Part shown: one piece after another, positions 1 to 54,403 of the stretch
Layout of the letters: each line of letters starts with the position of its first letter
Numbering within the stretch: position 1 is the stretch's first letter
DNA from: Chiloscyllium plagiosum
Lineage: Eukaryota
Direction: 5' to 3'
Length of the DNA: 64,000 nucleotides
NCBI RefSeq assembly: GCF_004010195.1
Contig: NC_057718.1
Location: forward strand, 60,922,073-60,986,072
The notes under the pieces: model-generated
What the model was told of the DNA's origin: nothing
Seen by the model: the letters and a program-made list of their open reading frames with translations, nothing else
Databases searched by the model: none
Made by a program: the position numbers and the translations under genes

Positions 1-454
1 TCAATGCATAACTGGTCAGCCAACTATTCTCCTGCCCAGGAATGTCGAAAGACAGACTCTGGAGTATGTTTAGTATTTCTCATATCTTGGCAGCTACCTC
101 TCTCAAAAAGCCACCATTACTGAGGAGATCCAACACACAGTTAGCTGCAGTGGTTCAGCTTACTATGAACCACAGAAATGAGTATTTGATAACAGATTCT
201 TCCACAAGTCAACAAAACACTGAGTGTAGGGAGAGTGGTCACCATGGTCCAATAGTATGGCCTATGGTACATGGCATATGGACGGACTGTAATGTTTAAA
301 TTCTAAATTTACTTCTTTATTTTCATACTTAAAGCAACTATGGTGATGAACGTATTTCTTTATTTTACTATTTTTGTTCCTAGATATCTTTGTACCTGAC
401 ATGGTGTTAGGAATGGTGACATTGTACTGTTTTCACGGTACTCTTGTACTTGTC

Positions 455-790
455 TGGAATCTTACAATCCCTACAGTATGGAAACAGGCCCTTCGGCCCA
501 ACAAGTCCACACCAACCCTCCAAAGGGTAACCCCCCAGACCCATTCCCCTCCCCTATTATCCTACATTTACCCCTGACTAATGCACCTAACCTACACATG
601 CCTGAGCATGGCAACATTTAGCATGGCCAATTCACCTGGACTATGGGAGGAAACCAGAGTACGCAGAGGAAACCCACACAGACACGGAGAGAATGTGCAA
701 ACTCCACACAGACAATTGCCCAAGGTTGGAATCGAACCCAGGTCCCTGGCACTGTGAGGCAGCAGTGCTAACACTGAGCCACCGTGCCGC
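455..790 (-). mobile_element. HE1-type tRNA-derived SINE, near full length
   Basis: Reverse strand reads gcggcacggtggctcagtgttagcactgctgcctcacag...GGTTCGATTCC, then the central tggccatgctaaat motif and the CR1-like tail gggccgaagggcctgtttcc; matches the copy at 30593-30915. Confidence 0.9.
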
Positions 791-1909
791 TGCCTACGCA
801 TGACAATAAAACTTAAAAGATCTATGACAGTGACACCTGGAATATATATCAGTGACAGATCAGATCATGAGCAAAATCCTACATCTATGACATTCTTCAA
901 ATTCAATGGAAGGACCCATTTAAGAGTGAAAAGGTGAAATACTCACGATCCCTCAAAGTTTCCATGCTGCCTCCATGCCTCATCATTTCCCCTTCCCCCT
1001 TCTGAATCCCCAAGAGCCATTTACCCAGTATTCGCTTTGAGAAGATCTCAGGAGCCATGTAAAGATTAAAGAAACTTGTAAGTGAATTTCAACTCAAACT
1101 TACTTGATACTGAAAAAATACTCTATTCAAGTCACCCATTCAAAAATGTAAAATTCCTTAAAGATATCAATCTGAAAAAACAAACATCTATTTCACTAAC
1201 CACATCAAAAACAGCTAATCTTTTAATATCTATTTAAAGCTGCTGATCAAAATGCCTATATAGCCCACTGCTAAGATAAGTGGTTCTAGACCTTTTGCAA
1301 CTCAACCAAGTATTCACAATGGGCTCAGTCAACGCAATTAATTTGGGGAAATCTAAACAACTGAGTTGTTTAAAACAGAAGGCTAATGGTTGTTTCTAAG
1401 CTGCATCAGACCTCCTGTCCGTAAATGTGCCCCAGCTGCCAGTGCCATTTTGTTTACAATAACTGAAAACTGCACACTGTTTTGTTTTCAATTTTAAATA
1501 GCTGGGGAATTAAATCACTTCAAATCATGACACTTAAATAGCCCATAAACCTTAAGATGGATTTATGCCATCCTTATAAAATGATAGTTCTGACACTGTG
1601 GAGTAAGGCCATTGAAGCAATGAAAGTCGCATGCCTTTGTACTCAAATCAGATGGCCCTGTTGCATTTGGGATTCCTGCATGTGTGATTCGTACGTCACA
1701 TTTTTTCCACAGCCTGTATAAATGGCATCTGCTAGGACCTCCACATCTGGGTCCTGCGTCCCATTATTAAAAGTCTCCAGACTCAGCAAAAATCCAGTCC
1801 AACATGTTTTTTTAATGGATTGCTTGTTTCAGGGCAAATGTATGTTAAATATTGGACAAATTTGCGCTGCACGAACATCCCAAATGCTTGGTTGAGGAGT
1901 GTAATCACG

Positions 1910-2566
1910 TCATAGAGTCATAGAGATGTCCAGCACAGTTGGAACTTTGGTCCAAGTGGACCTTTGCTCCAACTTGTTCATGCCGGCCAGGTATCCTAAA
2001 TTAATCTAATCCCATTTGCCAGCACTTAGTCCATATCCCTCTGAACTCTTCCTATTCATGTACCCATCCAGATGCTCTTTAAATATTGTTATTATACCAG
2101 CCTCCTCCACTTTCTCCAGCAGCTCATTCCATATAGGCACCACCTTCTCCATGAAAAAGTTGCTGCTTAAGTCTCTTTTAAATCTTTCCCCTCTCACTTT
2201 AAAGCTATGCCCTCTAGTTTTGGATTCCCCCATCCTTGGACAAAGACTTTGGTTATTCACCCTATCCATGCCTCTCATGATTTTATAAACCTCTATAAGG
2301 TCACTCATCACCCTCTGATGCTCCAGAGAAAATATTGCCAGCCTATTCAGCCTCTCGCTATAGCTGAAACCCTTCAACCCTTCAACCCTGGCAACATCTT
2401 TGTAAATCTTTTCTGAACACTTTCAAGTTTAACAACTTCTTTTCCAGGGAGACCAGATTGAAGACAGTGTTCCAAACATAGCTTAACCAACGTCCTGTGT
2501 AGCCATAACGTGACATCCCAACTCCTAAACTCAATGCACTGACCAATAAAGGCAAGTGTACCAAAT
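1910..2566 (-). mobile_element. CR1 (HER1-like) LINE 3' fragment
   Basis: ORFs 2006-2377 and 2374-2580 give CR1 ORF2 C-terminal motifs (KLESVQKRFTKMLPGL, SYSERLNRL, DLIEVYKIMRG, TRGHSFK); (ctctatga)n tail. Confidence 0.92.
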
Positions 2567-2714
2567 GGCACTGCAATCAAAATGTAAGCTCATATAACGA
2601 AGATCTGGAAGGACTGAGGATGCATACCTTTGAAAAATGAAGTGGTAAAAAGCTAATGAGTTTAACCATAGACTGCTTGGCTGGAGGTCCAACTCAATTT
2701 TTAAACTGGCTTCA

Positions 2715-3755
2715 AATTGACCGCCATGCGATCCTTATGGAGACAAAGTCCTGTCCTCACATCAAGGGTATAAGAAATTGTGTTTTGTGGCATAACCCAC
2801 CATGTTAAATGGAAAAGATTCTGAATGGATATATCAGCTCAAATTTGGGAAGTTTTGAGATGGTAGGAACTGTCAGCTGTATTCCACCACAATCTGATAC
2901 TGAAGCAGTCCATGTCTAAATCCAACAATATCTGGACAATATTCAGGCTTGGGGTGACAAGTGGCAAGTAACATTCATGGCATGCAACTGTCAGTTAATG
3001 ACTGTCTCCAATAAGAGATAATATAACCATTGTCCCTCAACATTTAGTGGTGTTATCATTACTGGTAACACTGGTAGTGTTACCCCACTATCCAATATCC
3101 TTGGGCTTACTATTGACCAAAAACTCAACTGGATTCACCACATAAACACAGTGGGTACAAGAGCAGGTAAGAAGCTGGGGTACAGCAGTGAGTAACTCAC
3201 CTCCTGATCCCCAAAGACTATCCACAATCTGCAAGACAAAAGACATGAGTGTAATGGAATATTCCTCACTTGCCTGGATGGGCGCAACTCCAACAACACT
3301 CAAGAAGCTTGGCACCATCTAGGACAAAGCAGCCTGCTTGATTGGCACTACATCCATAAATGTCCACTCCCTTCACGACCGATGCTCAATAGCCGCAGCA
3401 TGTACTATCTACAAGATGCAATACAGAAATTCATCAAAGATTCACAGACAGCACCTTCCAAACCGACACCCACTTCCATCTAAGGAAAAGGGCAGCAAAT
3501 ACATGGGAACGCCACCACCTACAAGTTTACCTCCAAGCCACTCACTATCCGGGATTGGAAATATATTGCAATCCCTTCACTGTCGCTGGGTCAAAACCCT
3601 GGAATTACCTCCCTAAGGGCATTGTGAGTCAACCTAAAGCAGGTGGGCTGCAGTGATTAAAGAAGGCAGCTCACCATTACCTTTTCAAGGGCAACTAGGG
3701 ACAAGCAATAACTGCTAGCCCAACCAGTGACACCTACATGCCACGAGTGAATTGT
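2715..3755 (+). mobile_element. Internally deleted copy of the second CR1-group LINE family (family B; see 51336-54403)
   Basis: 2715-2870 resembles 52320-52460; 2885-3755 is colinear with 53550-54400 and ends in gggcaactagggacaagcaataactgc. Confidence 0.85.
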
Positions 3756-4577: not shown

Positions 4578-5325
4578 TTGCGTTTTTTTTTCCTGACAAA
4601 TCACTGCCCCATTAATCTATTCTCAATCATCAGCAAAATGATCGAAGGAATCATAGACAGTGCTATCAAATGGAACTTATTCACCAATAACCTGCTCACA
4701 ATTTATAGTTTGGGTTCTCCCAGAACAGCTGGACTCCACAGACATCATTATAGCCTAGCTCTAAACATGGACAAAGGAGTTGAATTCCAGAGATGATGTG
4801 AGAGTGGCTGCCCTTCACATTAAGACAGCATTTTAGTGAGTATGAAAATAAGCCTCATCACAATTTAGATCAATAGCAATCAAAGAAATCACTGCTGTTT
4901 GGAGTCATACAGAGCACAAAGGAAGGGTATGGTTGTAACAGGCCAAACATCCCAGCCCAAAGCATCACTGCAAGAGTTCCTCAGGATAGTCTGCTCGGAC
5001 CAACTATCTTCAGCTATTTTGTCAATTTCCTCCCTCCTTCACAAGGCCAGAAATGGGATGTTCACTAATGACTGCACAGGATTAGGCACCATTCACAATT
5101 CCTCAAATACTGAAATAGTTTGTGCTTGCATGCAGCAAGATTTGGGTAATATTCAGAGTTATGCTGAAGAGTAACAAGTAACATTTGTGTCACAAAAGTT
5201 CCAGTCAATGACAATCTCCAACAAGAGAGAATCTAACTATTGAGGCAAAAGTGAGGACTGCAGATGCTGGAGATTAGAGTCAAGGTTAGAGTGGTGCTGG
5301 TCAGGCAGCATCCGAGGAGCAGGAA

Positions 5326-9100: not shown

Positions 9101-10654
9101 ATTGTAATTGTCACACAGTGCTGATGAACAATATTTTAGTGGCACTCACTGCCATCCCAAGCAGTACTCTCAAGCTCTGAGCTGCAGGAATTGGCGTCAT
9201 TGAAAACGGAAGAGGGAGGTATATGAATTGATATCACATTACCTTCATTGGTGAGATTCTGCATTCTGGTTGTTTCCATACTGGAAACCCTTTCCTGTTG
9301 CAGGACTCCCCTTTCCTATAATAATTTGCATTCGCATATCACCTGTAATTTTTAAAAAAGCCAAAACACTTTGCAGAAATGCTATCATACAAACTATCTG
9401 GTAGATTATGTGACACACGTGAAAGCTACCTCAGGTTGATTCAGAGGTGATTTACTATCCTGCATAACAATGTGAAAAACCAAAGCTCAACTTATACAGG
9501 AACAAGCTATTTGATAATTATTTAGTTTTTAAAAAAATAAATTTTACTCCTATTGGTTGCTTCAGAGTTATAAATGTGTTTTACCGAACATGGTCATGAA
9601 AAAATAAATTAGAAAATGCTATCAGAAAATATAAATGTGTAAATTATAAGCTTGAATCTTCCACTTGAACCTCATCCCAACAGACTTGTACAGGGAGACG
9701 ATTCTGATTGGTGTAACAAGGTATCCTGGATCCCGCATGATTTTCTAGCCTAGTTATTTTAACGTATTTTAAGTTGTTTCCCCAAGGAGGACAATGACTA
9801 CAGCAGGCCTTGGAAGGACAATATGGTAAATAGAAGTATTAACAATTTTTGATTGCATTTTAAAATATTTTTCATACCAATGGATTGCTTTATTATATAT
9901 TGTAAAGTATTCCACAACCTGAGGTTTTTAAATGCACTGTCTAGCATTCACAATAAAATTGTACACAAGGAACAGCAATGCATGCCATCAACTCCATCTG
10001 GAAATGCTGCAAAGTGAGGCAGGTAGGAGCAGAGCCATTAGCATGACTCAAAGAGGAATTCTGCCACTTTCTAGAATAAGTCCAGTGGAAGATCAAATCC
10101 CTAGAGTCTTTCATCCATTTATCCCTTCATCTTTTGAGGGCATCAATCAAGTTAGGAACCAGCTCATAACCTTCAGCGCGCCTTCAGACTTAACTGGATA
10201 TTTCTTACCCAACATTGTAGATGACTTTGGATGTTGCTTTGGATGTGGTTGTTGCTCAGCTAAGGCTGCTTATTTCCTGTTTTGATATTCATACATATCA
10301 ATGGTGGAATCTTCCCAGGCCCAGAACAAAATGAGCAATAGTGAGAGTTGGGAAAATAGAGTGAGACTGACAGAAATTAGATTCTTGATGTCAAGAATAC
10401 TAATCTGGTTCCTTAACTTACTGTTGAATGGCCAGACCAGAATCGCACCATGGTCTATTTGCATCCATTAATATCTAATGTGACCTATTTTTTTATTCAT
10501 TCATGGTATGTGACTATCATAAAATTAAACATTCTTGAAAATATTCAAGATAGGCAGAAGTGGGACCTCATTAATTTCGGACACATTTATAGCCATTGAA
10601 GGGAAAGATTTCATTATCAAGAATATCTAAATGTCCAGACAAGCTCTGGTTGGT

Positions 10655-12705
10655 AGGCATAGAGAATGCTGGATGACTAAAGAAATTGAGGGTTTGGTTA
10701 AGAAAAAGAAGGAAGCATATGTAAGATATGGACAGGATAGATCGAGTGAATCCTTAGAAGAGTATAAAGGCAGTAGGAGTGTACTTAAGAGGGAAATCAG
10801 GACGGCAAAAAGGGGACATGAAATAGCTTTGACAAATAGAGTTAAGGAGAATCCAAAGGGTTTTTACAAGTACATTAAGGGCAAAAGAATAACTAGGGAG
10901 AGGATAGGGCCCCTCAAAAGTCAGCAAGGCAGCCTTTGTGTGAAGCTGCAGAAAATGGGGGAGATACTAAACAAGTATTTTGCATCAGTATTTACTGGGG
11001 AAAAGGATATGGAAGATATAGAAAGTAGCGGAATAGATAGTGACATCTTGCAAAATGTCCATATTACAGAGGAGGAACTGCTTGATGTCTTACAACGCAT
11101 AAAGGTGGATAAATCCCCAGGACCTGATCAGGTGTGCCCTAGAACTCTGTGGGAAGCTAGAGAAGTGATTGTTGGGCCTCTTGCTGAGATACTTGTATCA
11201 TCGATAGTCACAGGTGAGGTGCCGGAAGACTGGAGGTTGGCTTATGTGGTGCCACTGTTTAAGAAGGGTAGTAAGGACAAGCCAGAGAACAGTGTAGCCT
11301 GACGTCGGTGGTGGGCAAGTTGTTGGAGGGAATCCTGAGGGACAGGATGTACATGTATTGGGAAAGGCAAGAACTGAGTAGGGATAGTCAACATGTCTTT
11401 GTGCATGGGAAATCATGTCTCACAAACTTGATTGAGTTTTTTGAAGATGTAACAAAGAGGATTGATGAGGGCAGAGTGGTAGATGTGATCTATGTGGACT
11501 TCAGTAGCGCGTTTGACAAGGTTCCCCATGGGAGACTGGTTAGCAAGGTTAGATCTCATGGAATACAGGGGGAACTAGCCATTTGGATACAGAACTGGCT
11601 CAAAGGTAGAAGACAGAGGGTGGTGGTTGAGGGTTGTTTTTCGGACTGGAGGCCTGTGACCAGTGGAGTGCCACAAGGATCGGTGTTGGGTCCTCTTTTT
11701 GTCATTTACATAAATGATTTGGATGCGAGCATAAGAGGTACAGTTAGTAAGTTTGTAGATGACACCAAAGTTGGAGGTGAAGTGGACAGCAAAGAGGGGT
11801 TACCTCAGATTACAACACGATCTTGACCAGATGGGCCAATGGGCTCAGAAGTGGCAGATGGAGTTTAATTCAGATAAATGAGAGGTGCTGCACTTTGGGA
11901 AAGCAAGTCTTAGCAGGACTAATATACTTAATGGTAAGATCCTAGGGAGTATTGCTGAACAAAGAGACCTTGGAGTGCAGGTTCATAGCTCCTTGAAAGT
12001 GGAATTGCAGGTAGGTAGGATAGTGAAGAAGGCGTTTGGTATACTTTCCTTTATTGGTCAGATTATTGAGTACAGGAGTTGGGAGGACATGTTGCAGCTG
12101 TACAGGACATTGGTTCGGCTACTGTTGGAATATTATGTGCAATTCTGGTCTCCTTCCTATCGGAAAGATGTTGTGAAACTTGAAAGGGTTCAGAAAAGAT
12201 TTACAAGGATGTTGCCAGGGTTGGAGAATTTGAGCTATAGGGAGAGGCTGAACAGGCTGGAACTGTTTTCCCTGCAGCGTCGGAGGCTGAGGGGTGACCT
12301 TATAAAGGTATACAAAATTATGAGGGGCATGGATAGGATAAATAGACAAAGTCTTTTCCTGGTTTGGGGGAGTCCAGAACTAGAGGGCATAGGTTTAGGG
12401 TGAGAGGGGAAAGAGTCCAGAACTAGAGGGCATAGGTTTAGGGTGAGAGGGGAAAGATATAAAACTTTTCACACAGAGGGTGGTATATATATGGAATGAG
12501 CTGCCAGAGGAAGTGGTGCAGGCTGGTACAACTGCAACATTTAAAAGGCACCTGGATAGGTATATGGATAGGAAGCGTGTGGAGGGATATGGACCGGGTG
12601 CTGGCAGGTGGGACTAGATCGGGTTGGGATATCTGGTCGGCATGGATAGGTTGGACCGAAGGATCTGTTTCCATGCTGTACATCTCTATGACTCTATGAC
12701 TCTAT
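10655..12705 (+). mobile_element. 5'-truncated CR1 LINE, frameshifted ORF2 (RT)
   Basis: Motifs [44 protein letters not shown]; (ctctatga)n tail; ~42 bp tandem duplication at 12371-12455. Confidence 0.95.
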
Positions 12706-15859: not shown

Positions 15860-16230
15860 TTTATTTTTAAATAGCTCAATGGGATGTGAGCATTGTTGGC
15901 TGGGTCAGCATTTTCTGCCCATTCCTTGGTGCCCTTGAGAAGGAGGTAATGAGCAGTTTTCTTTAACCGCTTCAGTGCATTTTGTATAGGTGGACACATA
16001 ACGCCTTTAAAGTGAGAGTTCCAGTAATTTGACACAAAGACAATGAAGGAACAACAATATATTTCCAAGTTCTGAGGGTGAGTGGCTTGGAGGGCAACTT
16101 GAATTTGGTATTCCCATGTAGCTATTGCCCTTGTCCTTCTGGATGGTAGTGATTGTGGGTTTACAAGGTGCTGCCTAAGGAGCTTAGGTAAATTTCTGCA
16201 GAGCATCTTGTAGGTTGTACAACTGCAGAT
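15860..16230 (-). mobile_element. Family B LINE 3' fragment
   Basis: Reverse complement is colinear with 54050-54400 (TYKMLCRNLPKLLRQHL). Confidence 0.8.
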
Positions 16231-17084
16231 ACTGTTTGCAGAACTGCTTAATGGATTAATGTGTAATAGATTTTTGATCATCTTAGGTATCAACAGATAG
16301 GGGGAGCAGGCAGGAAATTGAAGCTGAAGCCCAAAATCAGCCATATTGAATGATGGAGCAGGCTGAACAAGCTACAGAGTCTTCTTCTGTTCCTATTTCG
16401 CATGTTCTTAAGCAACATATGGATGACAGTAGTCGTAGATTTAATTCTAAATATGTGTTACAGTGTTTAGGAATTTGCATAGTGTTGGAGCAATATAACT
16501 TCACTCAACCACCTTTCCTGCGGATGGTCTATTGTAGGGAGAGTTTTTGCTTTCAATCTTGTAAAAGTTTGAGTGGGTGTCAACAGAAGACTGCATTGGA
16601 CTCTGCCTGTAACACATGCAGTCATCTGGGTAAGGGACTGACAGCTGACAGAACATACAGAAATATATTCCAGCATCAGTCTTTGGATTTATAACTAAAC
16701 TGGGGGAGAAAGATATTGGGCTGAATTTTATTATTTATTCATGTTTCAGCGCCCACACAAATGCATTGTCTATGTTTTGCTATTCAGTGGCAGAGAGCAA
16801 CATTTCACACATCTAAATAAATATTCATGAGGCCATTACGATCACTTTTTGAATCAGTGTGCAGAAATAACTTCAAAGTGTTATGGTGCAAATAGCCTTT
16901 TATGGTATATTTAAAATACTCTGTATAGATGGTGGAGCAGGAAATTAAATCCGAAAGAGAAAAAGGCATTATATCTACTATAACACCCAAGCCATTGGGG
17001 TCATCTGTAAGTATGTGAAAAAGAGATAGTTTGATGCCAAATGTACTGTTCCATAGGATACCTTTCCTCACAGTGGTTATACAT

Positions 17085-23200: not shown

Positions 23201-23471
23201 TTTAATATTGCCAGTGCCCTTCCTATATTTCTCAATACATCTCACATTTACAATCCCTCCTCTTAAAAACTCTACCCTCTGTCCTTAAAAAATTACATCA
23301 CATCCCAATCCTTCCTTTCTCCTCAAAATCACATTAAATACCCATAGCAATCTGTTCCTAACTCCATGTTTGAATCCTGCAACATTTTCCTGCCTAACTT
23401 AAACATACAAGCAGTGCTACAAATGACATTGATGGTAGTGATCATGTTATGTTTATCTTAATCTCCACTTT

Positions 23472-23848
23472 ATTCATTCATGGGATGAGGACATCACTGG
23501 CTAGGGCAGCATTTATTGCCCATCCCTAATTACTATGTTGCTGTGGCTCTACAGTCAGACCAGTAAAGATTAGAGGCAAAAAAACTGCAGATCTGAAGAA
23601 ACGTTGAATTCTCCAACTCCTGATGCTGCCTGGCTTGCTGCATTACATCAATAAAGATGGCAGTTTCCCTCCCTAAAGAACATGAGTGAACCAAATGATT
23701 TTCCATCAATTCATGGTCATCATTAGAATTTTAATTCCAGTGAATTTAAATTCCACTATCTGCTGTGGCAGCACTTGAGCTTATATCCCCCTGCACATTA
23801 CCTGGGATCACTGGATTAACAGTCCAGTGATAATACCATTAGGCCACC
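23472..23848 (-). mobile_element. tRNA-headed SINE sharing head and tail with the family B LINE
   Basis: Reverse strand reads ggtggcctaatggtattatcactggactgttaatccag...gaccatgaa...ggttcactcatg...gagccacagcaa, joined to aattagggatgggcaataaatgc...atgaatgaat. Confidence 0.85.
23571..23651. mobile_element. Small PLE-derived insertion nested in the SINE
   Basis: aaaactgcagat followed by inverted ctgaagaaacgttg...gatgctgcctggcttgctg; 7 bp TSD taaagat at 23564-23570 and 23652-23658. Confidence 0.65.
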
Positions 23849-24654
23849 AATTCTTTGTGGCTTTTGTCAGAGTTATTCACATCAGCTTTCTTCAGTCTGC
23901 CCTCCATAGTGTCAGTTTAGTGGAATTTAGCGCCACTATTAGCAATCCAAAAGTAGTCAGAAGATCTCCAACAATAGTTTCGTTCCCCTCCCCAACCTTG
24001 TTACCTCTGGAGTCCTATAAAGGCCTATCCTTAGCTTAATTTACATGCTATATATTGGCAATGTCATTTGAAGAGGTGAGATTCAATGTCCACAAACAAT
24101 CATTGTGAGATTAATAGCAGAGGTCAGACAACCATAGAGATCAATTAAGCAAGGGCTCAGGGGATTCCGTCTTCTAATGGCGACCTTGATTCTTAGCCAA
24201 GCCTCATCATATATTCTTGACTGACAGACGGACGAAGCACTCACCCGGTGAAACAGTTGTACAGCTGCTTGATTGACAGCTCTGGCTGATGATCACTGTC
24301 AGTTTCGCAATGTTCAAATGCTCCATCGTCCCCCTCCTTTTTAGTGAGTAAAGTGAGTGAGCACCAAAAGAGCAAGTGAACAGCTCTGAAATGTAACCTG
24401 GTCCAGTCTGTAAGCTGTATGCAAAGTATCCCTGCAGCAACATTGCAATGAGAGGTACACTCCAAAGTGCAACATGGCAGCCTGGAAGTGTTGTGTAAGT
24501 GGCTCAGAGATGGGGTGTGAGGGCATGGAGAGTCTGGCACCTGCCTGATGTGGAGACATGGAATGTGTGCAGCTGCTGTCCTGAGGCCCCTTCCAGGATG
24601 GCAGCCTGGAGGAAGAAGCGGCAAGCTGGAATCGCCGGGTTAATATAAACGAAA

Positions 24655-31285: not shown

Positions 31286-34200
31286 TACAAATAAGTAATG
31301 AGCTCATTGTGAAAGTGCCCCAAGGTAGCAGTAACCATAATACAAATTAATTTTACGTTCAATTTGAGGGAGGCAGGAGTAAGTTTGATATTATGTTTAA
31401 AACATTAAATCAAAGCAGTTATGAGGGCATGAAAGCAAAGGAGGCCAACGTTAAAAGATAGTTAAATTAAGGTAAAGGATCAATCAATAGAGATGTCGTG
31501 GCAGAAATTTATGGGGCTACTTCAAAATACACAAATTAAATCCATTCTAACATGAAACATTCCAAGAGACAGCTCTACCATCCACGATTAACTAGAATCA
31601 CTATAGTATCAAACTAAAAGAAAACACATAAAATTATGCAAAAACAGATTGAAAGATTGGGTACATTATTTTAAAAAGCAGCAAAAATGATTAAAAATAA
31701 GGCGGAAAATTAGTGTAAAGAGAAGGCTTACCAGAAATATAAAAACAGAGAGAAAGAATTTTCACAAATACTTTCTAAAAATAATTAATGATGTTAGTTT
31801 GTTCTATAGAAAATAAGGGCAGAATTTCCCAACCCTAGAGCTGCATGGGCAATGATGACAAATGTGAGAGGGTATGATGAGAATGAAAAAATCTGATTCT
31901 CGATATCAAGAAAAGTAATTCTGATTTCTCCTTTATGGTTTCAATGCCTTTGTGGGCAATGTCTTTTGTGAGTGGTGAGCATCTTTTCCATGTATTGGTA
32001 ACTCATTATTAGCTAATTTATAAGCCTAATTTTATATGCAGTTTGCAATTCTCCCACACACTGGTGAGAAACTAGATGTCTAGTGGTTAACTGGCAGATG
32101 GAGCTTATCACTTGTCTCTCTGGGCTTATATCTTCAGGTCCATCCATTAACATCTCATCGCAGGCCATAGCATACAAGGCCATGGACCAAGTGCTGAGAA
32201 ATGGGATTAAAATAACTGGATGTTTGATGAACAGTCTGCAAAGGATGGACTAAATGGCTTCTTTGCATGCTATAAAAATTCTATGACTCTTAATTATTCT
32301 ATATTAAGTCAAGGGCGTCATCGAATTTCAATCCAGAGTGTTGGCCATGGGCATTCAGGGCACTTGGAACAATCTTGGAAGGATCTGTGCCCTGCCAGAC
32401 AAGGTATTGGGCCACATTCAGTAGTTCAGTGAGCTGGAGGGACAACAGTCGAGGGCTGGACTATGCTGCATCAGGGCTGTCCTCACAACTCAGTCCAGCG
32501 GGTTGGCCATGGTTAGTCCTGGAGGTTTGGGCAGTAAACATCAAAGGAGGAATTATCAGGGGAAAGTCCAATATTTGTTAGGGGAAGTTAGAAATTCAAG
32601 TGTAGGGTTGGTATGCACTATGCTGGGTCACAGAGTGGTTAATGATATTAAAAGGGGACAACTCCAGATACTAGGATGGGTTATGATATAGCATGGGAGG
32701 GCACAAAATCTGCAGGAAGGTGTTTATTTTTCACACGTCACCATCACCCTGGCTTCAATGAATAGACAGTGGATAGCAATATGGTAAGTCAAAGAGCTGA
32801 GGGGGAAAAGTAGGGATATGATCTACGGGATGTGGGCATTGTTGGTTGTGTCAGTATTTATTGCCCATCCCCAGTTCCCTTTGAGAAGGCCATGGTGAGC
32901 TGCCTTCTTGAATTGCTGCACTCCAGCTCCATTTTCAGCAGCAGCGTGAGCAGTGACACTAATGTCTCTGACTCCTTCATGTGCCAGAAGTGTGTCCAAC
33001 TGCAGCTCTTGTTAGATCGCTTGATGGCTCTGGAGCTGCGGATGGACTCACTTTGGAGCATCTGCAATGCTGAGGAGGTCGTGGCTAGCATGTTTAGCGA
33101 ATTGGTCACACAGCAAATTAGGATTGCTGAGGGAGAAAGGGACTGGGTGACCAAAAGGCAGAGAAAGAGCAGGAAGGCAGTGCAGGTGTCCCCTGCAGTC
33201 ATCTCCCTCCAAAACAGGTATATCATTTTGGATACTGTTGGGGGAGATGGCTCACCAGGGGAAGGCAGCAGGTGCCAGGTTCATGGCACTGTGGCTGGCT
33301 CTGTTGTACAGAAGGGCAAGAAAAAGAGTACAAGGGTTTATAGTAATTGGTGATTCAATTGTAAGGGGAGTAGATAGGTGGTTCTGTGGCTGAAAATAAG
33401 ACTCCCAAGTGGTATGTTGCCTCCCAGGTGCACAGATCTGGGTTGACTCAGATTGGCTGCAGGACATTCTGAAGGGGAAGGGTGAACAGCCAGCTGTCGT
33501 GGTGCCTATAGGCACCAATGATATCGAAAATAGACAGGATGAGGTCCTACAAGCAGAATTTAGGGAATCAAGAATCATGTTAAAAAGTAGAACCTCAGAG
33601 GTAGTAATCTCAGGATTGCTACCAGTGCTATGTGCTAGTCAGAGTAGAAATGAAAGTATAGGCAGGATTAACGCAGGGCTGGAGAGATGGTGCAGGAGGG
33701 AGGCATTTCAGATTTTTGGAACATTGGGACCAATTCTGGGGGAGGTGGGATGACTACAAATTTGACAGGATAATTGGAGCTCTCTCTGGGGTAGGTGGGA
33801 CCTCTACAAGCAGGATGGTCTTCATCTAAACCAGAGGGGTACCAATATCCTGGGTGGGAAATTCGTGAAAGCTATTAAGGTGGATTTAAACTAATACAGA
33901 AGGGGGATGGGAACCAAAATTGTAGGACAGGTACAGAAGAGGATGAGAATAGGGAGTTCCCAAGAGGAAGTGTTGGATGTCTCATAACGCACAGAGGTGG
34001 ATAAAGCCCCCGACCTGATCAGGTCCCTCGAACTCTGTGGGAAGATAGGAAAGTGATTGCTACTCACACAGAAAAGTATAAGTCACCATGCTGGGAGTTT
34101 TCTGTCGACCTCCGAATAGTCGTAGAGATGTAGAGGAAAGGAAAGTAAAGATTATTCTCGACATGAGTGAGAGAGGCAGGGTAGTTCAACTATCCAAATA

Positions 34201-35310
34201 TTGACTGGGAACACTACAGTACGAGTTCTATAGATGGGTGAGTTTTTGTCCAGTGTGTGCAGGAGGGCTTCCTGACACAGTATGTAGACAGGCCTACAAG
34301 GGGCGAAGCAACATTAGATTTAAGATTGGGTAACGAGCCAGGCCCAGGTGTTAGATTTGGAAGTAGGTGAGCACTTTGGAGACAGCGATCACAATTCTGT
34401 CAGGTTTACTTTAGTGATGGAAAGGGATAGGTGTACTCCACCGAGCAAGAGTTACAGCTGGGGGAAGGGAAATTACGAAGCAATTAGAAAAGATTTAGGA
34501 AGCGTAGAATGGGGAAGGAAACTGCAAGGGATGAGCACATCTAAAATGTGGAGCTTAATCAAGGAAAAGCTCCTGTGTGTCCTAGATAAGTATGTGCCTG
34601 TCAGGCAGGGAAGAAGATATAGAATGTGTGAGCTGTGGTTTAAGAAGGAAGTGGAATCCCTGGTCAAGAAGAAGAAGGCTTATGTTTGGACAAAATGTGA
34701 AAACTCAGTTAGGGCGCTTGAGGGTTACAAGGAAGTCAGGAAAGACCTAAAAAGAGAGCTCAGAAGTGCCAGAAGGAGACATGAGAAGTTGTTGGCGGAT
34801 AGGATCAGGGTTAATCCTAAGGCTTTTCATAGTTATGTCAGGAATAAAAGAATGACGAGAGTTAAATTAGGGCCAAACAAGGATAATAATAGGAAGTTGT
34901 GTGTGGAGTCAGAGGAGATAGGGGAAGCACTTAATTAATATTTTTCGACAGTGTTCACTATAGAAAATGAAAATGTTAGCAAGGAAGATACAGAGATACT
35001 TGCATCTAGACTAGAAGAGATTGAGGTTCAAAAGGAAGAGGTATTAGAAATACTGCAGAGTATGAAAATAGACAAGTCTCCTGGGTCGGATGGGATCTAT
35101 TCTAGGATCCTCTGGGAAGCAAGAGAAGAGATTGCCAAGCCTTTGGCATTGATCTTCAAATCATCATTGTCTACAGGAATAGTGCCTAAGGACTGCAGGA
35201 TAGCAAATGTGGTTCCCTTGTTCAAAAAGGGCAGTAGAAACAACTCTGGTAATTACAGACCAGTGAGTCTCACTTCAGTTGTTGGTAAAGTGGCGGAAAA
35301 GGGTATAAGA

Positions 35311-35589
35311 TCAAAGTTTGTGAGAAGATTTGTAGCTTGGATACTCGTTGTTGTAGTTCTGTTCGTCGAGCTGGGAATTTGTGTTGCAGACATTTCGTCC
35401 CCTGTCTAGGTGATATCCTCAGTGTTTGGGAGCCTCTTGTGAAGCGCTTCTGTGATGTTTCCTCCGGAGGAGCAAATGCCAGAGGAAACACCACAGAATC
35501 GCTTCACAGGAGGCTCCCAAGGATGTCACCTAGACAGGGGACGAAACGTCTGCAACACAAATTCCCAGCTCGGCGAACAGAACCACAAC
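35311..35589. mobile_element. PLE-derived fold-back insertion inside CR1 ORF2, with hammerhead motif
   Basis: Inverted arms around 35470; reverse-strand motif CTGAGGAtatcacctagacaggggacGAAATGTC at ~35385-35425; 12 bp TSD with 1 mismatch at 35299-35310 and 35590-35601. Confidence 0.85.
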
Positions 35590-35951
35590 AAGGTTATAAG
35601 AGATAGGATTTATAACCATCTAGAAAAGAATAATCTGATCAGGGACAGTCAGCATGATTTTGCGAAGGATAGGTCGTGCCTAACAAATCTTATTGAGTTT
35701 TTTGACAAAGTGACCAAACAGGTAGATGAGAGTAAACCGGTTGATGTGGTGTATATGGATTTCAGCAAGGTGTTCGATAAGGTTCCCCATAGTAGGCTAT
35801 CACACAAAATGCGGAGGAATGGGATTGTGGGAGACATAGCAGTTTGGATCAGTAATTGGCTTGCTGAAAGAAAACAGAGGGTTGTAGTTGATGGAACATG
35901 TTCATCTTGGTGTCCAGTTACTAGTGGCGTACCGCAATGGTCAGTGTTGGG

Positions 35952-36050
35952 NNNNNNNNNNNNNNNNNNNNNNNNNNNNNNNNNNNNNNNNNNNNNNNNN
36001 NNNNNNNNNNNNNNNNNNNNNNNNNNNNNNNNNNNNNNNNNNNNNNNNNN
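35952..36050. other. Assembly gap (N run)
   Basis: Run of N inside the CR1 RT region. Confidence 1.
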
Positions 36051-39000
36051 CTTTATTAATAGAGGGATTGAGTTCCGGAACCAGGAGGTTTTGCTGCAGC
36101 TGTACAAAGCTCTGGTCCGGCCACACTTGGAGTATTGTGTACAGTTCTGGTCACCGCATTATAAGAAGGATGTAGAAGCTTTGGAAAGGGTGCAGAGGAG
36201 ATTTACTAGGATGGAGGGAATGTCTTACGAGGAAAGGCTGAGGGCCTTGAGACTGTTCTCGTTAGAGAGAAGAAGGTTGAGAGGTGACTTAATAGAGACA
36301 TACAAAATAATCAGAGGGTTAGATAGAGTGGACGGGAGACTCTTTTTCCAAGAATGGGAACGGCAAACATGAGGGGACACAACTTTAAAGTGAGGGGAGA
36401 TAGGTATAAGACGTCAGAGGTAGTTTCTTTACTCAGAGAGTAGTAAGGGTATGGTCTGCTTTGTCTGCATCGGTGAGATTTGCCAAGTTTAAGCGCATTT
36501 AAGTCATCATTGGACAGGCAAATGGATGTACATGGAATAGTGTCAGTGGGATGGGCTTCAGATTAGGATGACAGGGCGGCACAACATCGAGGGCTGAAGG
36601 GCCTGTACTGCATTGTAATGTTCTATGTTCTATGTACACCTGAGCTGGACTGGAACCAATGTCCTTGTGGGTGCTTTTGCTAATCCTGTTGGGGAGGATT
36701 TAAACTAATGTGGCAGGGGGATGGGAATCAAATGAGGAGGTTAGGGGATAGTAAGGAGGTAGTAACTAAAGCCATAATGAAGTCAGCGTGACCAAGGGGA
36801 AGAGTAGGCAGGGAGCAGATGATGAGCGCAAAGGGACTGGCAGTCTGAGATGCATTTGTTTTAATGCAAGAAGTGTAATACCTAAGGCATATGAACTTAG
36901 GGCTTGGATTAGTATCTGGGAGAATGATGTTATTGCCATTACTGAAACTTCGTTGAGGGAAGGGCGTGATGGCCAATTAAATATCCCAGGATATCGATGT
37001 TTCAGGTGGGATAAAGAGGGAGATAAAAGGGATGGAGGAGTGTAATTACTGGTCAGAGAGGGTATCAGAGCTGTGCTGAAGGAGGGCACTATGGAGGACT
37101 AGAGCAGTGAGGCAATATGGGCAGAGCTCAGAAATAGGAAGGGTGTGGTAACAATGTTGGAGCTGTACTACAGGCCTCCCAACAGCAAGCGTGAGATAGA
37201 GGTACACGTATGTAAACAGATTATGGAAAGATGTAGGAGCAAGAGTGATGATAGGAGATTGTAATTTTCCCAACATTGACTGGGGTTCATTTCGTGTTAG
37301 AGGTTTAGATGAAGCAGAATTTGTAAGGAGCATCCAGGAGGGCTTTCTAGAGCAATATGTAAATAGTCAAATAGGACCTGGTGTTGGGGAATGATCCCGG
37401 CCAGGTGGTTGAAGTTTCAGTCGGGGATTACTTTGGGAAGAGTGATAAAAATTCCGTAAGTTTTAGAATACTCATGGACAAAGGTGAGAGTGGTCCTAAA
37501 GGAAGAGTGCTAAACTGGGGGAAGGCCAACTATAGAAAAATTTGGCAGGAGCTGAGGAATGTGGATTGGGAGCTGCTTTTTGAAGGTAAATCCATGTTTG
37601 ATACGTGGGAGGCTTTTAAAGACAAGTTGATTAGAGTGCAGGACAGACATGACCCTGCAGGATCGTAATGGCAAGATTAGTGAACCATGGACGACGGGTG
37701 AAATTGTGAGATTAGCTAGGAGGAAAATAAGGCTTGGGCGACTGCAGACAGATGAAGCTTTGGGAGAATATCGGGAATGTAGGACCAATCTGAAATGAGA
37801 AATTAAGAGGGCTAAAAGGGGTCATGAAATATGTTTAGCAAAAACAGGGTTAAGAAAAATCCCAAAGCCTTTTATTCCTATATAAGGAGCAAGAGGGTAA
37901 TGAGAGAAAGGGTTGGCTCATTCAAGGACAGAGGAGGAAAGTTATGCATGGAATCAGAGAAAATGGGTGAGATTCTTCATGAGTACCTCACATCGGTATT
38001 CACTGAGGAGAGGGACATGATGGATGTTGAGGTTAGGGATAGATATTTGATTACTCGAGGTTAAGTCGATATAAGGAGGGAAGAAATGTTAGGTATTCTA
38101 AAAGACATTAAGGTGGACAAGTCCCCAGGCCAAGATGGGATCTATCCCAGGTGACTGAGTGAAGCTAGAGAGGAAATAGCTGTGGCCTTACCAGATATCT
38201 TTATAGCATCCTTGATAACAAGTGAGGTGCCAGAGGACTGAAGAATTGCTAATGTTGCCCCTTTGTTTAAGAAGAGTAGCAGGGATAATCCAGGTAATTT
38301 TAGACTGGTCATCGTGATGTCAGTGGTAGGGAAACTGCTGGAGAAGATACTGAGGGTTAGGATCTATTCCCATTTAGAAGAAAATGGGCTTATCAGTGAG
38401 AGACAGCATGGGTTTGGTGCAGGGAAGGTCATGGCTTACCAACTTAATAAAATTATTTGATGAAGTAACAAAGTTGATTGATGAGGGAAGGACTGTAGAT
38501 GTCACATACATGGACTTCAGTAAGGCATTTGATAAGTTTCCCATGGTAGGCCAATGGACAAGGTGGAGTCACATGGGGACCAGGGTGTACTATTTAGATG
38601 GATAAATAAGTGGCTGGGCAGCAGGAGACAGAGAGTAGTAGAGGAAGGGAGTTACTCAAAATGGAGAACTATGGCCAGTGGTGTTCCACAGGGATCCGTG
38701 TTATGACCACTGTCATTTTTTCCTATACATAAGTGATCTGGAGGAAGGTATTGGTGGTCTGATTAACAAGTTCACAGATTACCCTAAAATTGGTAGAGTA
38801 GCAGACAGTGAAGTCAGAGAATACAGCAGAATATAGATAGATTGGAGACTTCAGTGGAGAAATGGCAGACAGAGTTCAATCTGGGCAAATGTAAGGTGTT
38901 GCATTTTGGAAGATCCAATTCAAGAGTGAACTATACGGTAATGGAAAAGCCCTGGGGAAAATTGAGGTACAAAGAGATCTATAATCCATTGTTCCCTGAA

Positions 39001-45076: not shown

Positions 45077-46757
45077 TTTGGAACACTTTTCCTAAAAAAA
45101 GCAGTCTTTCAATATTTGTAGACAGAGGTGGATAGATTCTTGGTAAGCAAGGGGGTGAAAGATTATCAGTTGTAAGTGGGAATGTGGATTTTAGTTTACA
45201 GTCAGATCAGCCGTGATCTTATTAAATGGCAGAGCAGGCTTGAGGGGCTGAACGGCCTACTTCTGCTCTTTGTTGGCATAGTCAGACGTACGCATATTGT
45301 GAAGGAAGACGTGAGACAAAACTAAAATGATGACTAAATAAGACATCTTTGGCTAGGCAGAAAATTGATGGCTCTGCCATTTCACTTTTAAAGCAGTGAC
45401 AAATGTTGCCATTTCTAATGAAATTGAAAGAAAAATGTTATAGCAGGCTGAGATACTTTGCCTTCTGTCCAGCAAAAAAAAATTTGATGTTTGAAATTTG
45501 GTTAATTTTCTGGGTTTGGATGCCTAGGCAATTATATTTTTCTCTCCAGGCATTCTGCATAACCATCTTCAGCCTCCACAGCAACTCCAATGAATTAATC
45601 TGCACTGTTACATAAAAAATGAAAGACCTTTTAAATTAAGTTAATTTTAAAAGTGTTTCTAGACATGTATTTCTTACTGCCATGCACACTTTGATTGTCC
45701 ACTGACATATTAATTCAGTCCGTCAACCTCTCAGCTATTTATTCCATTTCCCATTTTCAACTGATTGTATTTGCTTTGATGTGTCCCCATTATAACCAGG
45801 TTTAAAAGCTGTTGCTCGAGGCTTCAAAATCTGGTACCTAAAGATTGAATGTAATTATTCAATTTGAGAATGTAGGATCTTCCTCCACTTAAATTCAAAA
45901 AACATTGGCTCAATGCTATAAAGCTGACCAGATATAAGCACAGAAGCGTTTCTTATTTGCATTTTATACTGGTTAAATATATTTTCTAAAAATGAGTAGA
46001 ATATAATAAGAAAGCTATTTATCAAATACACCCTCATTTTATCATGGAACATAATTGCTTAGCCAAAATTTAGGTTATTGTATTTTGTTTTAAATTTAAA
46101 ATCTTGTCCATCGAACTAATGATGTTGAATTTTCTGTCCTGCAAAGGTGAACAAAAGACAAACCAAATTAACATTTAATACACTTTCCCAGTGTTTCACC
46201 GAAAGAGTAAACAAGTCCTGAAATACTTCCTGAGAAGACCCCATAGTATAAAAGTTCAAAACACTGGTGGCCTTGCTGACAGCGCAGGGCAGATCAGTTG
46301 GTACACTGATCTTGCAGGTCTTTCTAGTTCACTTCATTTCTGCATGCTTTCGAGGATTATGCCATTGATGGCAAAATACAACTATTTTGGAGAAGATGAT
46401 GGTGAGGCACCTTCTGAAACTATTGCAATCCATCTGGTGCAGACGTCTGTTAGGGAGGGAGTTCCAGGATTTTGACTTCATGACATGAAGCAACAACAAT
46501 ATTGTTACTTGTCAGGATGGTGTGTGGCTTGGAGGAGAAGTTGCAGGCAGTGGTTTGCCCATGCAACTGCTACCGTTGCGCTTCTGCATCTGTCCCAACC
46601 TCCCTGTAGTTTTACCAATGAGCCAGGGTGACTGATACCATTGCAGTAGATGCTCTACCTGGAGTGATTTGTTTTTAGAACATAAATGTCCTGTGCCTTT
46701 GCACTTACAAAATGATCACAATGCAGGTGCCTTGCCCCAGACTGCACTTCTCATTTC

Positions 46758-50770: not shown

Positions 50771-51335
50771 TTGACCGGCAATTTCTGGCGGTTTGCAACT
50801 CAAATATTTCTTCCTAACCACACAGTGTTGGGTTTTCGCATGCCATCGTGACTTGCAAACATTATTGTTCTCACTGTTATTTTAACAGCAAATGTTCAAT
50901 GTTTCTTTTTTATTTGTACTTTCAGTATTGATCACATAATGGGCTGCACCGTACATGCGGGTGTATTGGTCCAGTGAAATAGTCAATTGCAAACCAACCA
51001 ATGTTTAACTAGCAACCTGCCCTGTTGCCCTGAGCACGATACTACACTGGAACAGCCTTAACAAGGTGAACACAGGAACCTGCCATTCAAGAAAAAGGTC
51101 TGCCCCTGAAAGCAGCTGAGTGATCCTAGCAGTGTATGAAATAAGTAGTGTCTATTGGCAGGAAATAGTCAAGAATCCCCAGAAAGAAATGTCATGTGTG
51201 CTGGACTCAGTTAAGTCAGGCAATCATTCGGCAGAGAGGCTTAAGTTACTGCAATAGCTCCCAGTGCAATCAACTTCATGCTTCAATCGGCCTCTGTTTT
51301 CCCTGTCTGTACATTCTTCCTTACTGGAAGTCGAA

Positions 51336-54300
51336 GTCCTAGTGGTATTAACACTGGACTATTAATCCAGAGATCTGGGTAATCTTCTGGAGACCTGGGT
51401 TCGAATCCCACCATGGCAGATGGTGCAATTGAAAATCTGCAATCACAAATCTACTGATGACCATGAAATCATTGTTGATTATCGGGAAAACCCATCTGGC
51501 TCACTAATGCCTTCAAGGAAGGAAATCTCCAATCCTCACCTGGTCTGGCCTATATGTGACTCCAGACTCACAGTAATGTGGTTGACTCTTAATTGCCATC
51601 TGAAATAGCTGAGCAAGCCATTCAGTTGCACTGATTGCTACAAAGTCTCAAGCAAATGAAACCAGCCAGATCACCTGGTATCAACTTAGGCACCAGGAAA
51701 GATCACCGCAGAAACAGCCTGTCGACCCTGCAAAGTCCTCCTTTCTAACAGTTGAGGGCTAGTGCCAAAATTAGGAGAGCTATCTCACAGACTAGTCAAG
51801 CACAGTCTGACATGCTGACAGAATCATACCTTACAATATTCCGGAAACCACCATCACCATCCCTGGATATGTCCAGTCCCACTGGCAGGACAGACCTGGC
51901 AGACGTGGCAGCACAGTGGTATACAGTGGTGGAAGCGTTGCACTGGGAGTCCTCAACATTTGACTCCAGGCAACATGAAGTCTCATGGCTTCAGGTTAAA
52001 CATGGGCAGGGAAACTTCCTGCTGATATCACAGGCCATCCTCCCTTAGCTGATGAATCAATACTCCTCCATATTGAACAACGCTTGGAGGAAGCACTGAG
52101 GATGGCAAGGGTACAAAATGTACTCTGGGTGGGGAATTTCAATATCCACCAAGTGTGGCTCAGCAGCAGTTCTACTGATCAAGCTATTTGGTCTTAAAGG
52201 ACGTATCTGCTTGGCTGGGTCTGTGGCAGGTGATGAGGCAACCAAAAAGAGGGAAAAATATGCTTGACCTCACCCGTACCAATCTGCTGATGCAGCTGTC
52301 CATGACAGTATGAGTGAGAGTGACCACCACACAGTCCTTTTGGAGACAAAGTCTCACCTTCACATTGAGAATAACCTCCATTGTGTTGTGTGGCATTATC
52401 ACTGTCCTAATGGAACATACTGCGAACCGATTTAGCAACTCAAGACTGGGCATCCGTGAGGTTTTGTGGGCCATCAACAGCAGCTGAACTGTACTTCAGT
52501 GCAATCTGTAACCTCATGGCCCTGCATTCCTCCACTCAACCATTACCATCAAGCCAGGAGATCAACCCTGGTTCAATGGAGAATTCAGGAGGGCATGTCA
52601 GGAGCAGTACCTAAAGGAGACATACCTGAAGATGAGGTGTCAACCTGGTGAAGTCACCAGACAGGACTACCTCCATGCCAAACAACCAAGAGCATCAAGT
52701 GATAGAGATCCCACAATCAATGGATTCGATCTAAGCTCTGCAGTCCATCCACATCTAGTTGTGAATAGTGGCAAATGATTAAACAACTCACTGGAGGAGT
52801 GAGTACCCAGTGGTCCCCAGCATTATAGACACCAGTCTTCAGTCAATTTGATTCACTCGACATGATATCAAGCATCAATTATAGACACTAGTCACTGTAA
52901 AGACTATGGGCCCTAACAACATTCTGGCAATCGTACTGAAGACTTGTGCCCCAGAACTTGCCACTCACCTAGGCAAACTGTTCCAGTACAGTTACAACAC
53001 TGCATCTGCCTGACAATGTGGAAAAATGCCCAGGTATGTCTTGTACATAAAAAACAGAACAAACCCAACCTGGCCAATTATTGTTCCATCAGTCTACTCT
53101 CGATCATCAGGAAAGTGATGGAAGGTGTCATCGATAGTGCTATCAAGCAGCACCTGCTCAGCAATAACCTGCTCAGTGATGCCCAGTTTGGGTTCTGCCA
53201 GGGCCATTCAGCTCCTGATATCATTCCAGCCTTGGTTCAAACAGGGACAGAAGAGCAAAATTCAAGAGGTGAGGTGACATCAAGGCTGCATTCAACCAAG
53301 TGTGGCATCAAGGAGCCCTAGCAAGACTGGAATCAGTAGGTATCGGGGGCATTCGCCGGTGGTTGGAATCATACCTGCCATATAGGCAGTGGTTGTTGGA
53401 GGTCAGTCATCTCAGCTCCAGGACATCTCTACAGGAGTTCTTCAGTGTCGTGTCCTAGGCCCAACCATCTTCAGCTGCTTCATCAATGACCTTCCCTCCA
53501 TTATCATATCACAAATGAGGTTGTTAGCTGATGGCTGCACCATGTTCAGCACCATTCGTGACTCCTCAGATACTGAAGCAGTCCATGTCCAAATGCAACA
53601 AGATATGGACAATACCCAAGCTTGAGCTGACAAGTGGCAAGTAACATGTATGCCACACAAATGCCAGACTATGATCATCACCAATAAGAGACAATCTAAT
53701 CACCGCTCCTTGACATTCAATCGTGTTACCATTTCTGAATCCCCCACTATCAACATCCTGGGGGTTATCATTGATCATAAACTCAACTGGACTCACCACG
53801 TAAACATGGTGTCTACAAGAGCAGGTCAGAAGTAGGAATACTGTGGTAACTCACTTCCTGACTCCTCAACGTCTGTCCACCACCTACAAGGCACAAGTCA
53901 GGAGTGTGAGGGAGTACTCCCCACTCGCCTGGATGAGTGCAGCCCCAACAAAACTCAAGAAGCTTGACACCAAGACAAAGCAGCCCGCTTGATTGGCACC
54001 ACATTCACAAGCATCTACTCCTTCCACCACCAATGCTCAGTAGCAGCAGTGTATACATTCTACAAGATACACTGCAGAAATTCACCAAAGATCCTCAGGC
54101 AGCCCCTTCCAAACCCACAACCACTTCCATCTAGAAGTACAAGAGCAGCAGCTTTACAAGAACACTACTACTTTAAATTTCCCCTCCAAGACACTCATCA
54201 ACCTCACTTGGAAATATATGTCCATTCCTTCACTGACGCTGGATCAAAACCCTGGAATTCCCTCCCTAAGGCCATTGTAGGTCAACCCACAATAGTGGAC

Positions 54301-54403
54301 TGCAGCAATTCAAGATGTCAGCTCAGCATCACCTTCTCAAGAGCAATTAGGGATGGGCAATAAATGCTGACTCAGCAAGGATGCCCACAAACAATGAAAA
54401 ATA
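51336..54403 (+). mobile_element. tRNA-headed CR1-group LINE (family B), single decayed EN-RT ORF, no ORF1
   Basis: A-box-like gtcctagtgg at 51336-51345; B box GGTTCGAATCC at 51398-51408; APE motifs from ~51733 (KVLLSN, LTESYL, IPGY, GNFN, SDH); RT motifs NYCSISLLSII, QFGFCQG, VLGPTIFSCFINDL, LADG. Confidence 0.85.

Follow-up and report, generated by a model that had tools for sequence, protein, structure and literature searches.

Results and Discussion

The 64-kb stretch of Chiloscyllium plagiosum DNA analysed here (the window) carries, at positions 51325 to 54401 of its forward strand, a decayed full-length copy of a Zenon-type long interspersed nuclear element (LINE) with a tRNA-like head, delimited by alignment to the family consensus. 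We read it as a dead elasmobranch Zenon-type LINE whose tRNA-derived head, with its A and B boxes, likely drove RNA polymerase III (Pol III) transcription of the whole 3.3-kb element, and put the probability of this reading at about 0.6. A Pol III-transcribed coding element is considered likely because the sense strand is free of the T-runs that stop Pol III and a tRNA-like promoter is present. A fuller scenario has, in our judgement, slightly better than even odds: an autonomous retrotransposon, long-lived in sharks and rays, with an end-to-end Pol III RNA purged of terminators, an AUG-less and probably cap-less translation into a 977-aa endonuclease-reverse transcriptase (EN-RT) protein, and a short interspersed nuclear element (SINE) born from it by one-step deletion of the open reading frame (ORF).

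In the textbook division, LINEs are coding and transcribed by RNA polymerase II (Pol II), and SINEs are non-coding and transcribed by Pol III; Pol III RNAs are not known to act as mRNAs in vertebrates. If the reading is correct, this rule would be broken by a natural Pol III mRNA from a vertebrate LINE of high copy number and long persistence, and cap-independent, non-AUG translation of a Pol III RNA would become directly testable. Its compactness, single ORF and self-copying promoter could also make the element attractive to those who build retrotransposon tools.

Structure of the window copy

The tRNA-derived head (51325–51418, +) was defined by alignments to host tRNAs and by ARAGORN on the consensus heads. 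It includes an A box at 51335–51345, in which two positions have decayed with respect to the family form TGGCCTAGTGG, and, 52 nt after it, the B box GGTTCGAATCC at 51398–51408, an exact match and the only exact copy found when both strands of the window were scanned. The perfect B box reported in the first-pass annotation was therefore recovered as such, and its A-box-like motif in a decayed state; the start proposed there (51336) lies about 10 nt inside the element, which begins at ~51325, and the end proposed is close to the tail end at ~54401. The head is followed by a body (51419–51602, +) without Rfam match, which copy comparison showed to be common to the LINE and to a ~350-nt SINE with a breakpoint at ~51602.

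The remnant of the single ORF (51604–54350, +), 977 stop-free codons long in the consensus, is broken in this copy. It starts with a basic N-terminal extension of 43 codons without AUG (51604–51731, +), and continues with a decayed APE endonuclease (EN) domain (51732–52337, +), whose consensus aligns with the protein P0001, and a decayed reverse transcriptase (RT) domain (~53019–53773, +), assigned from the match of a sister copy to RVT_1. These positions agree with the earlier placement of an APE endonuclease from ~51733, followed by RT and a tail. An AUG-initiated upstream ORF (uORF) of 35 codons, present in the consensus and in the window copy, lies in another frame (51656–51762, +) and overlaps the start of EN. 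The 3' portion common to the SINE (54342–54401, +) consists of the last two codons, the stop (54348–54350), a 3' untranslated region (UTR) with AATAAA and a hairpin, and an A/T-rich tail. Neither a SINE tail, nor a tandem repeat, nor a target-site duplication (TSD) was found between head and EN in the window copy, as had been noted before.

Over 3,068 aligned nt the window copy shares 88.8% identity with the consensus of 71 copies (non-CpG divergence of 10.1%). It has lost ~121 nt at 52799–52806 and retains 10 of 50 consensus CpGs. It is dead, because it carries 21 frameshifting indels.

The head is the fixed 5' end of the family

The host genome (3.56 Gb) was searched with a head plus EN query; 13,372 first-look candidates were obtained, of which 40 were scored and 39 non-self loci analysed. 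The head/5' region was collinear with EN in all 39, and 18 of these loci extended to the tail inside the stretch examined. The search was repeated with EN alone because the combined query favours junction-bearing copies: the 29 non-self loci analysed, out of 40 matches, all continued upstream into the same 5' region, 21 reaching the tRNA head (four via interrupted pieces) and 8 ending within the UTR. No alternative 5' end or ORF1 was found in these 29 loci, whose upstream flanks gave just five pairwise matches. The 5' boundary of the family was sharp, at GGG(A/T)AGG, with unrelated upstream flanks among copies. The head is the fixed 5' end of the family; the first-pass annotation had named a junction unique to this locus, or full-length members with an ORF1 and another 5' end, as findings that would count against it, and neither was encountered in these loci.

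The head follows host tRNAs collinearly over the D, anticodon and T arms, with an extra stretch of ~19 nt (a hairpin) in the variable region. Compared with host tRNAs of 13 ARAGORN anticodon labels, the best matches reached z values of 5.5 to 8.2, and Thr, Leu and Ser tRNAs scored alike as its parent among the labels sampled; an initial reading of the head as tRNA-Ser was not retained. ARAGORN calls the head of the SINE consensus a tRNA at the default threshold and that of the LINE consensus at the 90% threshold. Neither ARAGORN nor Rfam gave a tRNA call for the head of the window copy, and Rfam gave no head or body match above the family cut-off on four SINE loci. As in tRNA SINEs (SINE2), the LINE has a 5' tRNA-derived head with A and B boxes, but at 3.3 kb and with a 977-codon ORF it is not short, non-coding and non-autonomous, a description that suits only its ~350-nt derivative. 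Three host tRNA-like genes (L130, L190 and L191) have Ser/Leu-type bodies, and one of them, probably a pseudogene, combines a Ser-like body with an anticodon read as Val(TAC).

The sense strand is depleted of T-runs

The shortest Pol III terminators are TCTTT, TATTT and TTTT (PMC8466645). A 3.3-kb Pol III transcript must avoid T-runs, because Pol III stops at short ones. The LINE consensus (71 copies, 3,284 nt, ending in an A-tail) contains no TTTT (T4), TCTTT or TATTT in the sense strand, vs. 21, 5 and 2 in the antisense. Sense TTT runs number 5, vs. 22.6 expected from base shuffles (0/1000 as low) and 14.2 from dinucleotide shuffles (0/400 as low). Inside the ORF there are 4, vs. 11.5 expected from shuffles of its own codons among positions of the same amino acid (P 0.0007), with A, C and G runs at expectation under the same shuffle; Phe is encoded by TTC 15 times and by TTT twice.

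Two sets of controls were used: two CR1 consensuses of similar build from the same genome (10 copies each), and 80 LINE-bearing contigs of metagenome-assembled genomes (MAGs), presumed to be host contamination, 70 of which have an ORF of at least 450 codons and are non-shark. The CR1 consensuses have 14 and 11 T4 runs, and T4 runs were present in 70/70 of the other ORFs, with TTT ratios from 0.69 to 1.89, vs. about 0.2 in the Zenon-type consensus. The codon-shuffle TTT ratio ranged from 0.77 to 1.20 in the 72 controls, vs. 0.35 in the Zenon-type ORF. A loss of T-runs of this kind is what full-length transcription by Pol III would be expected to leave behind.

Neither an A/B-box head nor 5' similarity was found in the 80 MAG contigs, many of which are too short to include a 5' end, and no relatives were found among viral contigs; a motif scan of metagenome contigs gave 20 matches, all due to chance. 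The contigs themselves (L270 to L349) illustrate how common intact-looking CR1-group LINE ORFs are in prokaryote MAGs (419 stretches confirmed), presumably from host contamination.

Consensus ORF and its putative translation

The consensus has one stop-free frame of 977 codons (nt 295–3228) encoding APE and RT, in which EN begins at codon 44 and the earliest in-frame AUG is codon 171, inside EN. The 43-codon extension is collinear with the N-termini of the ENA proteins P0016 and P0046 (0/5000 and 28/5000 shuffles score as high), whose overall identities to the consensus protein are 41% and 39%, and not with those of P0036 or P0012. In view of this collinearity, the extension is likely real protein, begun without AUG. 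P0016 and P0046, the nearest relatives, both have a basic N-terminal extension, and their contigs (3.2–3.9 kb) leave little room for an ORF1. From the EN start onward the consensus aligns with P0001 (precomputed PF03372/PF14529), and the sister copy L039 matches RVT_1 (E 1.7e-17); Pfam gave no match for three window fragments and two EN stretches of sister copies.

No ORF1 was found in the family, as the first-pass annotation had stated for this copy, although the uORF occupies part of the region in front of EN and overlaps its start. The AUG of this uORF is visible by eye in 6 of 7 shark and ray Zenon 5' ends. The absence of ORF1 had been presented as the oddity of the element; it is not surprising, because Zenon elements universally lack it (PMC13343379).

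AATAAA is kept in 49 of 63 tails. As in other Zenon elements, the tail is poly-A: A4 or more follows the tail anchor in 47/63 LINE and SINE tails. A T-run, considered as a candidate built-in terminator, precedes the A-tail in 21/63 tails and is present at an internal A-run (consensus 117–125) in 9/86, counts that come from unequal windows; since it also occurs internally, mutation accounts at least in part for the T-run before the tail. The start of A-runs is often replaced by T-runs in old copies, likely through a mutational tendency of the genome in general.

A companion SINE

The window also contains a copy of a companion SINE (head, body and tail, no ORF) at 23469–23856 (−), located by copy alignment; ~80 unrelated nt interrupt it. 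In the SINE consensus (52 copies, ~350 nt), the first 293 nt of the LINE run straight into its final two codons, the stop and the 3' UTR, and this joint was found in 4/4 sequencing runs (host and two further organisms). A head-only query gave 29 non-self loci, of which 22 end at consensus ~290 (SINE-type) and 7 are LINE-type; with the window SINE copy as query, none of 29 loci is LINE-type. Thirteen diagnostic columns separate LINE heads from SINE heads (60 vs. 46 copies, with 11 unclassified copies set aside), and mean divergence is 14.5% for LINE copies and 12.9% for SINE copies. Because of the 13 columns, the two are to be regarded as separate lineages, of similar age by sequence divergence. 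Three LINE copies have intermediate or SINE-like head states, and one locus (L092) has LINE-type diagnostic bases but another deletion junction.

By homology, the SINE tail is derived from the LINE, because it starts within the C-terminal end of the ORF, which has homology to relatives. As for the head, the balance is modestly in favour of the SINE being an internal-deletion product of an older headed LINE, given the LINE-derived tail, the other junction of L092, the few LINE copies with SINE-like heads and the deletion derivatives of Zenon in moths (PMC6740152); the reverse, that the LINE head was captured from this very SINE, is the less probable of the two, with odds not far below even. The balance is left this narrow because protein homology to relatives starts almost exactly at the SINE breakpoint, a point against deletion that fits an ORF joined to a pre-existing SINE. 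An inverted repeat of 7–9 bp flanks the ORF of the window copy (51590–51602 and 54340–54350), and in the SINE its two arms form a hairpin with a 3-nt loop at the junction; the inverted repeat around the ORF may have guided the deletion. The earlier proposal of an autonomous-type element with a captured SINE or tRNA head is supported by the family-wide junction and, as regards a working Pol III promoter, by the avoidance of T-runs; on a SINE as donor of the head, the evidence leans to deletion instead. Birth by deletion would be opposite to the usual model of SINE origin: head first, ORF loss second. Shark repeat annotation will confuse the LINE with its SINE.

SacSINE1 and the Deu-SINEs are likewise tRNA-headed SINEs of cartilaginous fishes (PMC5499810). 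SacSINE1 was the first identification and was dropped over disagreement in length and tail: it is described as up to 463 bp with an L2-type tail (L2-2_CM), whereas the companion SINE has ~350 nt and, instead of the L2-derived 3' tail of that group, the end of the Zenon ORF and UTR, so that the two are set apart by description (PMC5499810). UCON3 was rejected as the SINE body, just a 9-mer being common to both; short motifs of the body were absent from two SINE supplements except for one 9-mer in a different context.

Phylogenetic placement and comparison with known elements

A midpoint-rooted RT tree was built with 42 rows: 27 MAG ORFs (of 28 taken from the 70), 12 database proteins and 3 consensuses. 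The element grouped with L279 (a MAG contig), P0016 and P0046 at 94/90, inside a 100/98 clade, and far from two canonical CR1s; the tree contains no named Zenon RT. Stuart et al. 2026 (PMC13343379) describe Zenon from five elasmobranchs, in all of which it ends in poly-A and has no ORF1, and the family studied here likewise has a single APE+RT ORF without ORF1. The consensuses in Table S2 of that paper (RhiTyp/CarCar/ScyCan/HypSab_Zenon-1 and SquAca_Zenon-1/2/3) were compared by eye over their first 400 nt. In this stretch RhiTyp_Zenon-1 is near-identical to the LINE consensus, with total lengths of 3,293 vs. 3,284 nt, and elasmobranch Zenon-1 and the LINE consensus share the single APE+RT ORF, the lack of ORF1 and the A-tail. 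To judge from sequence, the family is almost certainly elasmobranch Zenon-1.

In the same 400-nt comparison all seven Zenon consensuses of sharks and rays (five species) open with the head (that of SquAca-3 is degraded), A/B-box positions are kept while adjacent bases differ, and TTTT is seen in 0/7. Over these 400 nt, the 5' ends of three Zenon entries from hagfish and coelacanth appear unrelated and contain T-runs.

The first-pass annotation had left it undecided whether the element was catalogued. The family is known as a sequence, Zenon-1, but not, in the accessible parts of the literature, as a tRNA-headed one: the main text of PMC13343379 has no mention of tRNA, promoter or Pol III, and SINE appears in it once, in a reference; its accessible parts describe neither the head nor the avoidance of T-runs, the missing AUG or the companion SINE. 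No ORF-bearing LINE with a tRNA head was found in the accessible literature, which is distinct from Repbase, Dfam and subscription papers and covered accessible parts of Luchetti 2017, Kojima 2018, Martelossi 2024, Nishihara 2016, Ohshima 2013, Ray 2019, Kojima 2020, the Persaeus paper (PMC6740152), a tobacco 5'-switching preprint, a whale shark preprint and PMC13343379. Within this literature, the tRNA head, the terminator-free sense strand, the apparently AUG-less start and a SINE made of the LINE minus its ORF were not found in print; the sequence and the lack of ORF1 are already known.

Three known systems resemble parts of the shark element. A lepidopteran Zenon and its SIDE Persaeus are likewise a single-ORF Zenon with a high-copy internal-deletion derivative that keeps both ends, but Persaeus is without tRNA homology or Pol III promoter, whereas the shark LINE and its derivative both have the tRNA-like A/B-box head (PMC6740152). 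The bipartite SINEs from RTE and Vingi LINEs likewise join a tRNA head to LINE 5' and 3' parts; in the model proposed for them the head is added after ORF loss and the autonomous LINE is of Pol II type, whereas in the shark the ORF-bearing element is itself headed (Kojima 2018, PMC5786205). The T+ SINEs B2, Dip and Ves have, like the shark LINE, a Pol III head, AATAAA near the 3' end and an A-tail, sometimes with a T-run before it, but are short and non-coding (PMC8466645).

Proposed mechanism and alternative explanations

A single-ORF ancestral Zenon would have gained the head, from a tRNA or a tRNA-SINE, by template switching before the shark/ray split. Selection would then have purged Pol III terminators from the ORF via synonymous choices. 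The RNA, probably uncapped, would be translated via the uORF or from a start codon other than AUG close to the beginning of the 43-codon extension. Target-primed reverse transcription would copy the head along, and therefore each full-length copy would carry its own promoter. The present SINE would have arisen by internal deletion from an older form of the LINE.

Several observations weigh against Pol III transcription of the whole element. Pol III RNAs are normally uncapped and untranslated, and no internal ribosome entry site or ribozyme was identified with Rfam. Taken by itself, the absence of T4 does not reach significance with either dinucleotide or own-codon shuffles (P 0.15), so that the signal rests on TTT. 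Two controls also have few T4 runs: L279, the closest relative whose DNA was compared, is mildly depleted (1 vs. 3.6), and L332, a MAG contig with no B-box motif found in its first 1.5 kb, is the most depleted of all (1 vs. 10.1 expected). Avoidance of T-runs may predate the head. RNA reads of run X10 lie in both directions, 98% of them run into unlike sequence, and they show no pile-up of molecule ends; the transcription start, strand and polymerase proposed for the LINE are read from its sequence. No intact copy was seen among those examined, the longest stop-free homologous stretch being ~205 codons. The first-pass annotation had named TSDs enclosing head and EN together as a check: no TSD surrounds the window copy, and true vs. 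mismatched flank pairs gave no excess in 11 full-length LINE and 40 SINE copies having both ends, copies that are 13–15% diverged.

Some of these points would be accommodated if the head were simply a fixed 5' UTR and the RNA were made by Pol II, from a body promoter or by host read-through, with a T-poor strand due to another constraint, for example on RNA export or stability, or to a codon preference inherited within Zenon. A capped RNA would solve translation, the X10 reads resemble host read-through, L279 and L332 show that some T4 depletion occurs elsewhere, the uORF AUG is conserved and LINEs are taken as Pol II transcribed (PMC5786205). We consider this explanation unlikely, though it deserves to be kept in mind: the depletion is confined to one strand and to T, and lies beyond the values of 72/72 controls; the element begins at the first base of the tRNA, where Pol III would start, and the A and B boxes are kept across the five species.

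Labour may also be split, Pol III making an uncapped template RNA and the ORF2 protein being translated from capped Pol II read-through RNAs, whether of the same copy or of others. The avoidance of T-runs would be accounted for with no need of uncapped translation, and the SINE shows that the protein can act in trans. A protein supplied in trans should, however, let the ORF decay or be lost. Instead, all 977 codons of the consensus are open, and full-length families are maintained in five species (PMC13343379); the AUG before EN would still be missing. These points make divided labour a doubtful explanation, somewhat more so than a Pol II transcript. Chance adjacency of a SINE and a 5'-truncated LINE, or a 5'-truncated copy of an ORF1-bearing family, suggested by the abundance of the SINE (22/29 head-only matches), is extremely improbable given the same junction in 39/39 and 29/29 loci, the shark and ray Zenon 5' ends, and a LINE head that differs from that of the SINE at the 13 columns and has no SINE tail.

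Other LINE sequences in the window

Two canonical CR1 elements (~32935–36372, + and ~10600–12700, +) likewise have a CR1-group APE+RT ORF2, but their RTs are 31–34% identical to that of the Zenon-type element and lie on a distant branch, with microsatellite tails and normal T-runs. These two families supplied the CR1 consensuses used as controls. The Zenon-type element has neither the esterase ORF1, nor the microsatellite tail, nor the position in the CR1 RT clade that characterize canonical CR1. The CR1 at ~32935–36372 has an upstream ORF followed by a 961-codon ORF2; the upstream ORF presumably carries an esterase-like motif (family scan gave no match).

Other fragments of the Zenon-type family, 3' or internal, are present in the window at 2893–3716 (+), 4592–5236 (+), 15885–16234 (−), 32831–32925 (−) and 46450–46591 (−). 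The fragment at 4592–5236 was considered as a second Zenon family that could serve as a control, which was rejected because its matches belong to the same family.
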